Source: Escherichia coli
Lineage (GTDB): Bacteria; Pseudomonadota; Gammaproteobacteria; Enterobacterales; Enterobacteriaceae
Length of the DNA stretch: 64,000 bases
Assembly (NCBI RefSeq): GCF_024700885.2
Contig: NZ_CP117016.1
Strand: one strand, 5' to 3'
Below, piece after piece: positions 19,606 to 64,000 of this stretch. The notes under the pieces were generated by a model. That model was not told the origin of the DNA. It searched no databases and saw only the letters and a program-made list of their open reading frames with translations. The stretch's first letter is position 1. Every line of letters begins with the position of its first letter. A program made the position numbers and the translations under genes.

Positions 19606-19692
19606 TGGTGCGAGGGGGGGGACTTGAACCCCCACGTCCGTAAGGACACTAACACCTGAAGCTAGCGCGTCTACCAATTCCGCCACCTTCGC
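19606..19692 (-). tRNA. leuV: tRNA-Leu (anticodon CAG)
   Basis: 87-nt minus-strand tRNA: GCGAAGGTGGCGGAATTGGTAGACGCGCTAGCTTCAGGTGTTAGTGTCCTTACGGACGTGGGGGTTCAAGTCCCCCCCCTCGCACCA, with long variable arm and encoded CCA. Confidence 0.95.
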
Positions 19693-19726
19693 ACAGTCAT
19701 CTTACTTTTTTTGATATCGCCTCGTT

Positions 19727-19813
19727 TGGTGCGAGGGGGGGGACTTGAACCCCCACGTCCGTAAGAACACTAACACCTGAAGCTAGCGCGTCTACCAATT
19801 CCGCCACCTTCGC
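19727..19813 (-). tRNA. leuP: tRNA-Leu (anticodon CAG), variant copy
   Basis: Same 87-nt tRNA with one substitution in the variable arm (plus strand gtaagaac instead of gtaaggac). Confidence 0.93.
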
Positions 19814-19841
19814 CCAGTGCGAGCAATATCAACGTGGTTTT

Positions 19842-19928
19842 TGGTGCGAGGGGGGGGACTTGAACCCCCACGTCCGTAAGGACACTAACACCTGAAGCTA
19901 GCGCGTCTACCAATTCCGCCACCTTCGC
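19842..19928 (-). tRNA. leuQ: tRNA-Leu (anticodon CAG)
   Basis: Third tandem copy, identical to copy 1; first transcribed of the minus-strand leuQPV operon. Confidence 0.95.
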
Positions 19929-22205: not shown

Positions 22206-22883
22206 ATGAAGTGGGACTGGATTTTCTTTGATGCCGATGAAACGCTGTTTACCTTTGACTCATTCACCGGCCTGCAGCGGATGTTTCTTGATTACAGCGT
22301 CACCTTTACCGCTGAAGATTTTCAGGACTATCAGGCCGTTAACAAGCCACTGTGGGTGGATTATCAAAACGGCGCGATCACTTCATTACAGCTTCAGCAC
22401 GGGCGGTTTGAGAGCTGGGCCGAACGGCTGAACGTCGAGCCGGGTAAACTCAACGAAGCCTTTATTAATGCGATGGCGGAAATCTGTACGCCGCTGCCGG
22501 GCGCGGTTTCTCTGCTTAACGCCATTCGTGGCAACGCTAAAATTGGCATCATCACCAACGGCTTTAGCGCCTTGCAGCAAGTGCGTCTGGAACGCACGGG
22601 CCTGCGTGATTATTTCGATTTGCTGGTGATTTCCGAAGAAGTTGGCGTTGCCAAACCGAATAAGAAAATTTTCGATTATGCGCTGGAACAGGCGGGCAAT
22701 CCTGACCGTTCACGCGTGCTGATGGTTGGCGACACTGCCGAGTCCGATATTCTCGGTGGCATCAACGCCGGGCTTGCGACCTGCTGGCTGAATGCGCACA
22801 ATCGCGAGCAACCAGAAGGCATCGCGCCTACCTGGACCGTTTCTTCGTTGCACGAACTGGAGCAGCTCCTGTGTAAACACTGA
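22206..22883 (+). CDS. yjjG: HAD-family pyrimidine 5'-nucleotidase
   Basis: 225-aa ORF with HAD motif [10 protein letters not shown] and motif [14 protein letters not shown]. Confidence 0.9.
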
Positions 22884-22973
22884 TTGCCTCCCCCCCGTTG
22901 ATGGGTAAAATAGCCGCAATTTTTCGTTTTCAACAAGCGCGGCGCGATGCCGCTTACTCAAGAAGAAAGAATT

Positions 22974-23048
22974 ATGACGTTGTCTCCTTATTTGCAAGAG
23001 GTGGCGAAGCGCCGCACTTTTGCCATTATTTCTCACCCCAATAATTAA
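22974..23048 (+). pseudogene. prfC: 5' remnant of prfC (peptide chain release factor 3) interrupted by the prophage; attL region
   Basis: ATG at 22974 encodes [22 protein letters not shown], the RF3 N-terminus, then diverges inside the GTPase P-loop to NN-stop at 23046-23048. Confidence 0.75.
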
Positions 23049-23201
23049 GCCAAAATTAAAGCTCTTTTACTCTTTCAAAATCCTTTCAGTTAATTGAGGT
23101 TGAGCCATATAACTCATTTAAATACATTTAGTTATGTGGCTTCTTTAATTGAAAATTCTTTCATGTAACTTTAAATCGATCTGCTTGCTTTCATCAAAAA
23201 T

Positions 23202-23260
23202 CTGTACATGTGCTTGTACATAATGTACAAAACAGCAGAGGTGTTTTTTTATTTGTACAA
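23202..23260. promoter_or_regulatory. cluster of TGTACA-type palindromic sites upstream of int
   Basis: Perfect 17-bp palindrome ttgtacat-a-atgtacaa (23214-23230) plus flanking tgtacat and ttgtacaa half-sites within 60 bp, ending 9 bp before the int RBS. Confidence 0.5.
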
Positions 23261-23268
23261 GGTGAGTA

Positions 23269-24486
23269 ATGGCGCTGTCTGATGCGTGGTTGCGTTCAGT
23301 CGTTGGAAAGGAACGTGATAAGGTTTTGGTTAAATCCGATCGTGATGGTCTGTCTGTCAGAGTATCACCGAAAGGTCGCGTAGTGTTCCAATATCGTTAT
23401 CAATGGGCAGGGAAAGGTGAGCGCCTTGATATCGGAACTTACCCGGCAACTGGATTAAAAGAGGCCAGAGAAGAAGTTATCCGTCTCCGTGGTGAACTCG
23501 AGTCAAACCGCAATCCACGATTAGTCAGGCAGGCTGAAAAACGAAAAGCTACTGAAGCCATGACGGTAGAGTCTGTGATCCGTGCCTGGTATGAAGCATA
23601 TTGTGTAAAAAATAAAAAAGGTTCTGAACAGATACTCCGCTCGTTTGAGCTGCACCTGTTCTCTAAAATCGGGAATATCCCTCACGATGCAGCTACATTG
23701 CATGATTGGTTAGAAGTCCTGGAGCCTCTTAGCACTAAGACTCCAGCAATAGCAGACCGATTGCTAATTAACGCAAAGCAGGCCCATGTCTGGGCGTATA
23801 AGAGAAAGCTCATTGAAACTCGCCCACTGTCGGATATCACGGGTAAAGATATGGATATCCGTAAAGGTCAGAAGAAACGGTTTCTGACACATGATGAAAT
23901 TAAAATCCTTTATGCTGCGATCGATGGTTCTCGAATGGTTCCTAAATACCGGGCCTTCATTAAACTATTGCTGCATTTTGGCTGCCGTAGTTCAGAGCTA
24001 ATTACCGCCAGGGTGGACGATTTTGATTTCATTAATAAAGTATGGACTGTACCACCAGAACGACATAAGACTGGGGAGATAACAGGCGAACCGCTAAAGC
24101 GGCCCATTATTGAACCGGTTGAAGAGCTTATAAAGTACGCTATTTCTATGAACAATGGTTCCGATATGCTTTTTACTAAGGAAGGAAGCAGGGAACCCGT
24201 TGGTCGGACATCATTGCAGTCGCTGCCTTACAATTTAATGCAGTACGCATGGCGGCGTTTGGGGTATCAATTCCCTCATTGGTCTCTTCATGATTTGAGG
24301 CGAACAGCACGAACAAACTTTTCTGATCTTACTGCGCCTCATATTGCAGAAATAATGCTAGGTCATAAACTGCCAGGGGTATGGCAGGTTTATGACAAGA
24401 GCGATTATTTAGATGAACAGCGTAAAGCTTACCAGGCATGGTGGGAGAGAGTTGAATCGATAGTTACTTGTACTTGTTCAGACTAG
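23269..24486 (+). CDS. int: tyrosine site-specific integrase
   Basis: 405-aa ORF; C-terminal catalytic region with HDLRRTARTN and LGHKLPGVWQVYD (conserved R, H-x-x-R and Tyr); GGTGAG RBS. Confidence 0.9.
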   Translation: MALSDAWLRSVVGKERDKVLVKSDRDGLSVRVSPKGRVVFQYRYQWAGKGERLDIGTYPATGLKEAREEVIRLRGELESNRNPRLVRQAEKRKATEAMTVESVIRAWYEAYCVKNKKGSEQILRSFELHLFSKIGNIPHDAATLHDWLEVLEPLSTKTPAIADRLLINAKQAHVWAYKRKLIETRPLSDITGKDMDIRKGQKKRFLTHDEIKILYAAIDGSRMVPKYRAFIKLLLHFGCRSSELITARVDDFDFINKVWTVPPERHKTGEITGEPLKRPIIEPVEELIKYAISMNNGSDMLFTKEGSREPVGRTSLQSLPYNLMQYAWRRLGYQFPHWSLHDLRRTARTNFSDLTAPHIAEIMLGHKLPGVWQVYDKSDYLDEQRKAYQAWWERVESIVTCTCSD

Positions 24487-24619
24487 AACTGACATTTTGC
24501 ATAGGCAGAACGCAATTATGCATATTGCGGTATAATCCCCTTCTTAAAACTGTAAGAACTGCTTGCTAATCCTTGCAGTTTTTGATTATAACATTTTTAT
24601 TTGTTTATTAGGATTTTTG

Positions 24620-26752
24620 ATGGAACTGTTACAGGAACACGGGGCGATACTTAAAGTTGTAATCATGCCTACTACTGGGGAACAAACCATAATCCAAGGT
24701 TTCGATACTGGCCTCCTCAACCCAGAGATATCCAACATTCTTTTTTTATTGGCCAAAACACCAAAAGAAATTAGTGAGATTTTTGTCAATGAAAATGATA
24801 ACTTTCAGCCTACTCTAAGCGGGCTAAATCCTATTTTTTTAATATCTAAAGAAAATCTTGAAAAAATACCAGATATTTATCAAACGCCATTTTGCTTAAT
24901 TTTTTGTGCTAAAGAAGATTTTTCGTATGTTTGTGCTTTAAAAAAACATTTTGCTATACCACCTATAATTTGTTGCAATTCTAAACGCGCTGATCTACCA
25001 CTTAATAAGATTAATAGTATATACTCATTTGATAAGGTGCTCTTCTCTCGGTTGAAATTCATTGAGGATAAAATAAGAAAAAATCACAGTGAAAAGAAAA
25101 TATCAACGAAGTTGAAGCGAAGAGGGGCTTTATTTAATAAATCACCTTGGAGATCGACGCTTAACAATTCAACACTACCCAATGAGTTGTTAATTGAATC
25201 ACTTGGCTATATGCTATCTCCACCAAAAAGAATTAAAGATGGTAGTAGCAAAAGAGAGTTTATAGAAATAATACTTCATAGCGTTGATGCATACACCGAA
25301 TGTTTAAAGGAATTAGATATACCACTTCCAACGGAAGTCTTACTTTTTGCTCCGGGTATGCACTCTTTTTTATATGATAAAAATAATGACTTTTATGAGT
25401 TAATAACGGAAAATTTATCCACAATTGAGAAAAAATTCCTTATTGATGGAGTGTTGAGGAATCCAGGCTATTCTGGAATTAGACTTGATATAAATTCAGA
25501 TAGAAAAGAACTTTTTAAAAGTCCTGCTTTCCGTTACCTCACCTCACTAAGACGAGCTGAAATGCGATTAACAACAGCTGCGATTACTTTATTTAGCATA
25601 AATAAAAAAATCCCAGCAATAAGATTGCCAAATGCAATAAATCATTACTCCAATTATTTGAAAAATCTTGAAGATCTTGCAACTTCTTCTGGGATAAATA
25701 GTGAAGCATTCATCACTAAATCTAAAGCATTCAATACTGTTATTCGAAGAGCCCTTGGTTGCAAGTTGAGAACATATATAAGTAAAAACTATAGCGATTT
25801 GTCCTTTGTTTGTGATGTACCATTGGATTGGATTAGGTTTAATAACATACCTATAATGTTCAGTCATGAGATATCAAGAATAAATGCTACGCCTGGTAAC
25901 GTTCTTCTACAGAGCGCCTCTGCTTTTCCGCGCGTTTTAGTAAAAGCATCTGAGTTGAGAAAGGTTTTAGTTATACGTTCTTTTGAGCCTGATGATCACT
26001 TAAAGTTCATATTAGAGAACGCAATTGAGATATTTAAAAAACAGATGCCAGATCTTGATTGCGAGATTATTGATGTTAGATCGAAAGCTGAGTTTATTGA
26101 TGCTCTAAATCAATATCAAGGTCATATTCTTGTTATGGATTGTCATGGAAACCATGATGGCAATGGGAGTCATGGATGGTTAATAATAGGTGAGGATAAA
26201 GTGGACACTTGGAGTTTGAGAAAAATAGCAAGAATTCCTCCTATCGTAATTCTGAGTGCATGTTTAACATCTGCCCTAAGTGGTTCTCATGCCTCTGTTG
26301 CTAATGGCTTCGTTATAAGTGGTGCATTAAGTGTCATCGGAACATTACTGCCTGTAAATGCGATAGACTCTGCTGTTTTTGTAAGTCGGTTGATCTACCG
26401 GTTTTACGAGTTTCCTTCGACGCTATCTACAAATTTTACACATGTTAATGTAAGGCTTTTTCTTTCTGTTTTTCTTAGGATGTCCTATGCAAGCGATTTA
26501 ATAAGAGGATTTTTATCTGAAGATTTGATACCGAATAATTCATGGAAGAAAGATGCAGTTGATATTAACATGTATATAAACATGCTTCACCATGATTGGT
26601 ATGATTATGTAATTAACAAATTGACGATGTTAACGGGGCTCACGAAAAAAGATGTACTTGATTTTATCGATAGAAAATTATTCATAACCGAAACTATGTG
26701 CTATAGCCAAATTGGATTTCCAGATGCAATCACAATTAGTCTTAAAGATTGA
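24620..26752 (+). CDS. large AT-rich cargo protein with C-terminal caspase-like (CHAT-type) His/Cys protease signature; candidate defence protein
   Basis: ATG at 24620 (AGGA 6 nt upstream) gives ~710 aa. C-terminal region HILVMDCHGNHDGNGSHGWLIIGE...IPPIVILSACLTSALSGSH...GALSVIGTLLPVNAIDSAVFVSRLIYRFY has the His (HG) then Cys (SAC) spacing of clan-CD peptidases. N-terminal ~500 aa unassigned. Confidence 0.7.
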   Translation: MELLQEHGAILKVVIMPTTGEQTIIQGFDTGLLNPEISNILFLLAKTPKEISEIFVNENDNFQPTLSGLNPIFLISKENLEKIPDIYQTPFCLIFCAKEDFSYVCALKKHFAIPPIICCNSKRADLPLNKINSIYSFDKVLFSRLKFIEDKIRKNHSEKKISTKLKRRGALFNKSPWRSTLNNSTLPNELLIESLGYMLSPPKRIKDGSSKREFIEIILHSVDAYTECLKELDIPLPTEVLLFAPGMHSFLYDKNNDFYELITENLSTIEKKFLIDGVLRNPGYSGIRLDINSDRKELFKSPAFRYLTSLRRAEMRLTTAAITLFSINKKIPAIRLPNAINHYSNYLKNLEDLATSSGINSEAFITKSKAFNTVIRRALGCKLRTYISKNYSDLSFVCDVPLDWIRFNNIPIMFSHEISRINATPGNVLLQSASAFPRVLVKASELRKVLVIRSFEPDDHLKFILENAIEIFKKQMPDLDCEIIDVRSKAEFIDALNQYQGHILVMDCHGNHDGNGSHGWLIIGEDKVDTWSLRKIARIPPIVILSACLTSALSGSHASVANGFVISGALSVIGTLLPVNAIDSAVFVSRLIYRFYEFPSTLSTNFTHVNVRLFLSVFLRMSYASDLIRGFLSEDLIPNNSWKKDAVDINMYINMLHHDWYDYVINKLTMLTGLTKKDVLDFIDRKLFITETMCYSQIGFPDAITISLKD

Positions 26753-26859: not shown

Positions 26860-27054
26860 TTACTCAATAACTCCCGCAAATTTGTAAATCTTGCGTGATG
26901 CCCATTTATTTGGGCATGATTTAATATCAGGATCTGGAAAGTCTGGCCTGTATTTCTGGCCAGTTCTCCTGTTTACGCTGTTCCAGCGAAGAACTGTCGA
27001 TACTGATACTCCACAGAAGTTGGCGACTTGTTTAGTTGTCATTAAGTTGTTCAT
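26860..27054 (-). CDS. small HTH DNA-binding protein, putative excisionase / early regulator
   Basis: 64-aa ORF (MNNLMTTKQVANFCGVSVSTVLRWN...) with strong GGAGGT RBS; start overlaps the upstream stop (TAATG). Confidence 0.5.
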   Translation of the reverse strand: MNNLMTTKQVANFCGVSVSTVLRWNSVNRRTGQKYRPDFPDPDIKSCPNKWASRKIYKFAGVIE

Positions 27055-63769: not shown

Positions 63770-64000
63770 AAGATTTAACACTCAAATTTGCAGACAGGGC
63801 CGACTTTTCGGCCTTTATGGAGAGTATTGGCTATTATGATGACGAGTCGATGCAGGATGATATTCTTATTGACGTGATAGGTAACGTGTACAAAGAAACC
63901 GGAGAACTGACTGAAGATGGCGAACCGGTATGTGTTAAGGAAGACGGATATTTTGTAAACGTGCGCATCATTAATGATGTGAAAACACCGTCAATATTCG
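63766..64000 (+). CDS. hypothetical protein after stf (possible tail fibre chaperone), truncated by the window end
   Basis: ATG at 63766 overlaps the stf stop (ATGA) with GGGGGAGAG RBS; translation MKDLTLKFADRADFSAFMESIGYYDD... does not resemble the lambda Tfa N-terminus I recall. Confidence 0.4.
   Translation, partial: MKDLTLKFADRADFSAFMESIGYYDDESMQDDILIDVIGNVYKETGELTEDGEPVCVKEDGYFVNVRIINDVKTPSIF

Follow-up and report, generated by a model that had tools for sequence, protein, structure and literature searches.

The stretch of DNA that we analysed, hereafter the window (64,000 nucleotides of Escherichia coli, contig NZ_CP117016.1), contains a lambdoid prophage which we believe, with a probability of about 0.9, to be a phage of the cdtI, Ayreon and prfC-Stx group that integrated at prfC, the RF3 gene, and that carries a recoded replacement for the start of this gene. 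The integration would have proceeded by site-specific recombination between the phage site attP and a 14-bp core located in codons 18-22 of prfC, catalyzed by a tyrosine integrase of the IntSXT type, with the P arm of attP bringing in the recoded prfC start. At the left junction (attL), the native promoter and 22 codons would thereby be left as a dead-end stub of 24 codons directed towards the integrase gene (int). At the right junction (attR), the phage-borne start would be fused in frame with the remaining part of prfC, yielding an RF3 of 528 aa, and the hybrid gene would probably be transcribed from inside a conserved P arm of ~165 bp.

The prfC stub lies at positions 22974 to 23048 on the plus strand, from its ATG to the end of its stop codon as given by the ORF list and the translation, and consists of 22 native RF3 codons followed by Asn-Asn-stop. 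It aligns with the 5' end of K-12 prfC, with identity up to position 23038, i.e. over 65 nt or 22 codons, and a three-way alignment including K-12 shows identity to the end of ...TCTCACCC and complete divergence beyond. Since the identity with prfC stops at 23038, the Asn-Asn-stop is phage DNA. The first-pass annotation, made from the letters of the window, had recognized the RF3 N-terminus at 22974, as the alignment confirms, and had described a 24-codon RF3 stub created by a split within the first ~70 nt of prfC. The ORF does have 24 codons and the split does fall in the 5' end of the gene, but only 22 of these codons are native, the two Asn codons being phage-encoded, and the break is located at nt 52-65 of prfC. 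The gap of 220 bp reported between the stub and the integrase agrees with our coordinates, the stop codon ending at 23048 and the integrase ORF starting at 23269.

Upstream of the stub we find the E. coli core genes rsmC, holD, rimI, and yjjG (22206-22883), identified by matching to K-12 and to the annotation of strain MLI114. Three tandem tRNA-Leu(CAG) genes occur upstream of rsmC (19606-19928, minus strand); this region looks like ordinary core genome and the tRNA genes have no relation to the prophage. A consensus scan and our own weight matrix both predict a native prfC promoter, TTGCCT-16-TAAAAT, at 22884-22911 on the plus strand, with a weight-matrix score of 9.8, which is attained by 2.4% of shuffles. 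This predicted promoter is now stranded 5' of the stub and directed at int.

A junction query of 901 nt was searched against 5,426 complete E. coli genomes, of which 5,424 gave a match. The whole query, and thus attL, is matched in 699 genomes; in the remaining listed genomes, the match ends at query base 439, which corresponds to window position 23038, and the annotation gives yjjG, then prfC. Over the 3' end of yjjG, the intergenic DNA, and the initial 65 nt of the ORF, the identity to these uninterrupted yjjG-prfC loci, the arrangement of most E. coli strains, is 99-100%, and the empty site that the first-pass annotation proposed to look for in related strains is thus readily found. Chance cannot explain why a match of 439 nt breaks off at one and the same base in ~4,700 genomes. 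We find the attR junction, annotated as prfC, in 698 of the 5,426 genomes, and ~13% of the genomes have both junctions.

As the prophage runs off the window, attR was read in E. coli MLI114 (NZ_CP117013.1), which matches the last 4,000 bases of the window exactly and whose junction region is likewise 100% identical. In MLI114, the prophage measures 44,780 bp from core to core; its far junction, attR, falls at window-equivalent position 67805, 3.8 kb outside the window, where the annotation gives a full-length prfC of 528 codons. The first 21 codons of this hybrid prfC are phage DNA (ATGACAAGCCTTTTGGCCGCAGAGGTAGCGAAAAGAAGAACCTTTGCA), joined to the host gene via the duplicated core, and its start reads ATGACAAGCCTTTTGGCCGCAGAGGTAGCGAAAAGAAGAACCTTTGCAATTATTTCTCACCC followed by GGACGCCGGTAAG. 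The phage-borne start, made of an ATG and 20 codons, is one codon shorter than the host start and differs from it at 20 positions at least. The 528-aa protein departs from the host protein at residues 3-8 only, the rest being K-12 RF3. An intact prfC had been expected beyond the right end of the window, together with a reconstituted start and a duplicated core at the far junction, and all three are present in MLI114, including the second copy of ATTATTTCTCACCC. The native 5' end matches a single place in MLI114.

The core itself (ATTATTTCTCACCC, 23025-23038) is identical in attL, attR, attP, and attB, and these 14 bp are the sole stretch shared exactly by attL and attR. At position 23024, which forms the left edge of the core, attL has the host-type C and attR the phage-type A, which places the exchange to the right of 23024, inside the 14 bp. 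The base at this edge is also A in the attP of cdtI (L004, position 2986) and in the attR of MLI114 (L001, position 14766). The attP of Ayreon (L003, position 2986) carries the host-type C, extending its identity with attB to 20 bp. This C/A polymorphism may be the trace of a past exchange or of heteroduplex repair at the core edge.

The two junctions can be compared with the uncut phage site. In the genomes of Ayreon and cdtI, one uninterrupted stretch leads from the copy of the prfC start through the core, CAATAATTAAGCC..., and the P' arm to int, the P' arm being the phage DNA from the core to int (23039-23268 in the window), which occupies the same place next to int in both phages. Identity over window positions 23039-24500 amounts to 100% for Ayreon, 97.9% for cdtI, and 95.6-96.5% for the Stx1a/Stx2c phages. 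Since the same prfC-start segment adjoins int in free Ayreon and cdtI, attL and attR are the products of attP x attB recombination. Upstream of the phage-borne ATG, Ayreon resembles the cdtI/MLI114 type over ~165 bp, beyond which the cargo differs.

The integrase (23269-24486, plus strand, 405 aa) is an IntSXT/P4-like tyrosine integrase (PHROG 1 integrase, E 2e-75), for which NCBIfam offers no specific family. The N-terminal arm-binding (PF13356), middle (PF22022), and catalytic (PF00589) domains were precomputed on its 97%-identical cluster representative. The HDLRRT motif (HxLRxT) and the Tyr region at the C-terminus can both be aligned with the integrase of R997. Directly 5' of int, four TGTACA motifs are clustered within 57 bp (23203-23259), i.e. 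four of the ten found in the whole 64-kb window, and four others occur in the 115 bp 5' of the phage-borne prfC start at attR. Both clusters are candidate arm-type integrase sites, and repeats of the GTGTACAAA type are found in the sites of R997, Shewanella, Pseudomonas, and Moraxella as well. A candidate excisionase of 64 aa is encoded on the minus strand at 26860-27054 (phrog_1553 excisionase, E 1.9e-35). Between the stub and int, a hairpin followed by UUCUUUAAUU occurs at 23095-23147 on the plus strand, with its main stem at 23102-23114/23130-23142 and a predicted RNA fold of -17.3 kcal/mol (z -4.0). The stem is kept in the cdtI version, in part by changes on both sides. A strict terminator scan of 22800-23400 and of the attR region gave no hit, this hairpin being below the criteria, but it may act as a weak terminator that keeps transcripts from the host prfC promoter from running on into int.

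From 23039 to the end of the window at 64000, where the element runs off, the comparison with MLI114 delimits a lambdoid prophage body. It includes terminase, portal, tape-measure, and J genes, and its late region is 96-97% identical to the isolated lambdoid phages PhiR55_1, Ayreon, and mEp460. Past the window, the MLI114 prophage has genes for tail fibres and for a reverse transcriptase together with a SLATT protein, as well as a dinI-like gene. Regarding cargo, a large ORF directly 3' of int and before the excisionase gene (24563-26752, plus strand) corresponds to BovA of the Borvo anti-phage defence (PADLOC E 1e-241), with a weak Pfam CHAT domain. The reverse transcriptase at the far end is of the UG17 defence type (E 6e-158) and is accompanied by its SLATT partner (E 8e-57; L001 15504-17403, MLI114). 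With Borvo beside int and UG17/SLATT at the far end, the prophage carries defence cargo at both of its ends. No cdt genes are found in the stretch where cdtI carries its own.

Indirect evidence suggests that the hybrid prfC is under constraint. In the nine codons that precede the core (EVAKRRTFA), phage and host differ by eight nucleotides and by no amino acid, an all-silent outcome that was obtained in none of 200,000 random sets of eight substitutions in these codons. In the alignment with K-12, the phage copy retains the start codon together with its AATTATGAC context, and 3' of the core, MLI114 and K-12 prfC differ by 25 synonymous and no non-synonymous codons. These silent-only differences on both sides of the core, together with the conserved start context, point to a translated and constrained gene, and we think that the hybrid prfC is very probably used by the lysogens. 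The exact 528-aa hybrid RF3, named RF3_ECOK1 in UniRef, is found on at least 1,000 contigs. Nevertheless, part of the silent divergence could already have been present in a prfC taken up from a different host, and not reflect upkeep in the phage.

How the hybrid gene is transcribed is less apparent. The first-pass annotation had anticipated both a 5' end and a promoter supplied by the phage; the former is seen at attR and in the free phages, but the latter does not stand out. Over the 225 nt that precede the phage-borne start, our weight matrix finds no sigma-70-like promoter above the level of shuffled sequences, the best candidate (TTTTCT-17-CATAAT, 16 nt before the ATG) scoring 7.1 against a shuffle mean of 9.0, and the consensus scan of the attR region gives none on the prfC strand. 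Read-through into prfC from the dinI-like gene, located 5' of the hybrid gene, is unlikely because this gene is divergent. A scan of viral contigs with the integrase returned only E. coli prophage fragments that are 98-99% identical and mostly cut at int, which adds no diversity with which promoter conservation could be tested. A promoter supplied by the phage is nonetheless plausible. For SXT, a promoter supplied to prfC by the element is described, as far as the account in PMC8409611 goes, and by analogy with this precedent RF3 might be under phage control.

Two LexA-box-like palindromes (CTGT-N8-ACAG) are present 160-205 bp 5' of the new prfC start (L001 14974-15017, MLI114), next to the divergent dinI-like gene (L001 15033-15281; PHROG DinI, E 6e-31). 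We considered a control of prfC by LexA through these palindromes, which we reject because they belong to the dinI-like gene. We also discarded the idea that they form a conserved part of the att module: Ayreon has neither dinI nor complete palindromes, while its arm is the same, so that both dinI and the palindromes are cargo lying outside the att module.

The poor promoter score bears on another explanation, according to which the prophage amounts to a knock-out or knock-down of prfC, the hybrid ORF being intact but deprived of a working promoter or ribosome-binding site, with little or no RF3 produced. The lack of a promoter-like site above chance 5' of the new start is compatible with such an effect, as is the presence of prfC among the prophage-disrupted genes of Bobay 2013 (PMC3603311); moreover, since prfC was reported not to be essential (PMC2323221), a silent hybrid gene would be tolerable. 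Yet, in spite of eight silent changes, the phage-borne codons preserve the protein sequence, neither the start codon nor its AATTATGAC context has been lost, and the downstream part of RF3 shows 25 silent and no replacement differences with K-12. The exact hybrid protein recurs on no fewer than 1,000 contigs, and the independent SXT/R391 family has its own in-frame copy, for which it reportedly supplies a promoter (PMC8409611). We therefore regard a knock-down as unlikely.

The phage-borne start might otherwise be a passive relic of faulty excision from another host, kept for the core only. Its first residues (MTSLLAAEVAKRR...) are indeed nearer to the native Pseudomonas start (MTKQAAEVAKRR) than to that of E. 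coli, and two orthologous host genes would show silent divergence too. However, recombination needs nothing but the 14-bp core, and yet the copy still starts with an ATG, remains in frame, and preserves 13 identical residues before the crossover. In addition, SXT/R391 retains a different, likewise in-frame copy, and the copies of the lepA start found in two lepA phages, described below, differ from each other at four positions which are all silent, indicating continuing constraint in phages. A mere relic is therefore decidedly improbable. As for an assembly error or a local duplication that would have placed a fragment beside native prfC, we found nothing in its favour and give it practically no credit, since 699 independent complete genomes share this junction, the attR start, which departs from the native one at no fewer than 20 positions, is present in free phage genomes, and the native 5' end occupies a single place in MLI114.

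That phages integrate in prfC and provide a replacement start is already known, and the integration of a cdtI/Ayreon-like phage proposed here follows the standard mechanism of site-specific recombination. Ogura 2007 (PMC2323221) found the O103 Stx1 phage in prfC, where it alters the N-terminus of RF3 and deprives the gene of its own promoter and ribosome-binding site, and raised the question of the RF3 level in prfC lysogens, for which we found no answer in the searchable literature. According to citing papers (PMC8409611, PMC8138268, PMC2791158), phage cdtI was shown to insert at prfC by Asakura 2007, and the location of SXT/R391 elements at prfC by Hochhut and Waldor 1999. The integrases of the cdt1 phage and of SXT fall in one prfC-targeting cluster (PMC8138268), and prfC is an established site of Stx1a and Stx2c phages, among them those of CC119 (PMC10132054).

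The present case illustrates how a temperate phage can land in a conserved gene without destroying it, which is frequent, as it concerns ~13% of complete E. coli genomes. For annotation, it follows that the stub does not deserve to be listed as a gene, and that an RF3 of 528 aa starting with MTSLLAAE is a phage-host hybrid. The scoring of prfC as 'disrupted' by prophages in Bobay 2013 (PMC3603311) is corrected as well, the ORF being rebuilt at attR. If the phage arm does lower or re-regulate RF3, about one in eight E. coli strains would have altered termination and quality control, and an altered RF3 would then be a lysogenic-conversion trait.

Replacement of a part of the target gene is also known from phage 21 and e14, which integrate in icd and bring a substitute end of that gene, so that the ORF stays intact. 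These two elements replace the 3' end of icd, for which neither a new promoter nor a new start codon is needed, unlike at prfC. The icd gene is cited as a prophage integration site in PMC3603311. The dusA-specific integrative elements (IMEVchUSA3; PMC8409611) differ from our prophage by their target gene.

Among the close homologues of the integrase, those of Shewanella and Pseudomonas (50-52% identity) are located ~200 bp 3' of native prfC stubs ending in ...FAIISHP, and GTACA-type repeats precede int in both elements. The integrases of Pantoea agglomerans (L008-L010, 54-56% identity) lie beside YdgH/BhsA-like and fimbrial genes, with no prfC stub upstream, indicating that the choice of target varies and that not all close homologues are at prfC. 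An integrase with 41% identity in Moraxella phage Mcat19 (L018, ~860-1200) is preceded by two GTGTACATAAT repeats, and a short ORF further upstream, MMPTPSHLTTISIIGHTNDDI followed by a stop, may be another replacement gene start.

A similar arrangement is found at lepA, the gene of the paralogue EF4, where Gifsy-1 also integrates. The integrases of the lepA phages SPN3UB (Salmonella; L016 955-1002) and Kpn_R1 (Klebsiella; L017 955-1002) are 46% identical to ours, and the attP of both contains the first 14 lepA codons, ATG-initiated and silently recoded (MKNIRNFSIIAHID), followed by N-stop. The lepA copy ends at the codons equivalent to prfC ..FAIISHP, before the P-loop, and int lies ~190 bp downstream. 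Beside the target gene, the difference resides in the arm repeats, which are of the GTGTCCA type and not TGTACA. The same attP layout at prfC and lepA suggests that related integrases hit equivalent pre-P-loop codons of paralogous GTPase genes, a link between integrase and target that we did not find in the searchable literature treating lepA, prfC, and integrase together. We put forward, as a doubtful proposal, that the promoter swap leaves RF3 on a promoter-poor phage arm, and that this integrase clade repeatedly targets pre-P-loop codons (prfC, lepA), bringing along a silently recoded start in every case.

The SXT/R391 family, represented by R997, uses the same prfC codons (..FAIISHP) and has its own ATG-initiated replacement start. 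The R997 integrase is homologous to ours over the full length (39% identity, E 3e-91), and its attP has GTGTACAAA repeats in both arms, similar in type to the TGTACA clusters of our phage. Nevertheless, several features separate the two. The replacement N-terminus is MANQDFLNEINKRR.. in R997 and MTSLLAAEVAKRR.. here, and int of R997 points towards the core from a distance of ~800 bp, with xis in between, whereas int of our prophage starts at 230 bp from it and points away. Members of SXT/R391 are conjugative elements with integrases near-identical to IntSXT (~99%, PMC2791158), far above the 39% observed with R997, and our element is a lambdoid prophage with no conjugative-transfer backbone. 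Judging from these comparisons, the prophage appears to work like SXT at prfC while being outside the SXT/R391 family.

Its closest counterparts are the lambdoid phages that integrate at prfC, i.e. cdtI, Ayreon, and the Stx phages, whose integrase and attP arm are 95.6-100% identical in nucleotide sequence over 23039-24500. The attL architecture, the attR architecture as read in MLI114, the lambda-like structural genes, and the excisionase all correspond to this group, and the core and the phage-borne prfC start are the same as in cdtI and Ayreon. Only the cargo differs, with Borvo, the UG17 reverse transcriptase and SLATT, and the dinI-like gene in the present prophage.
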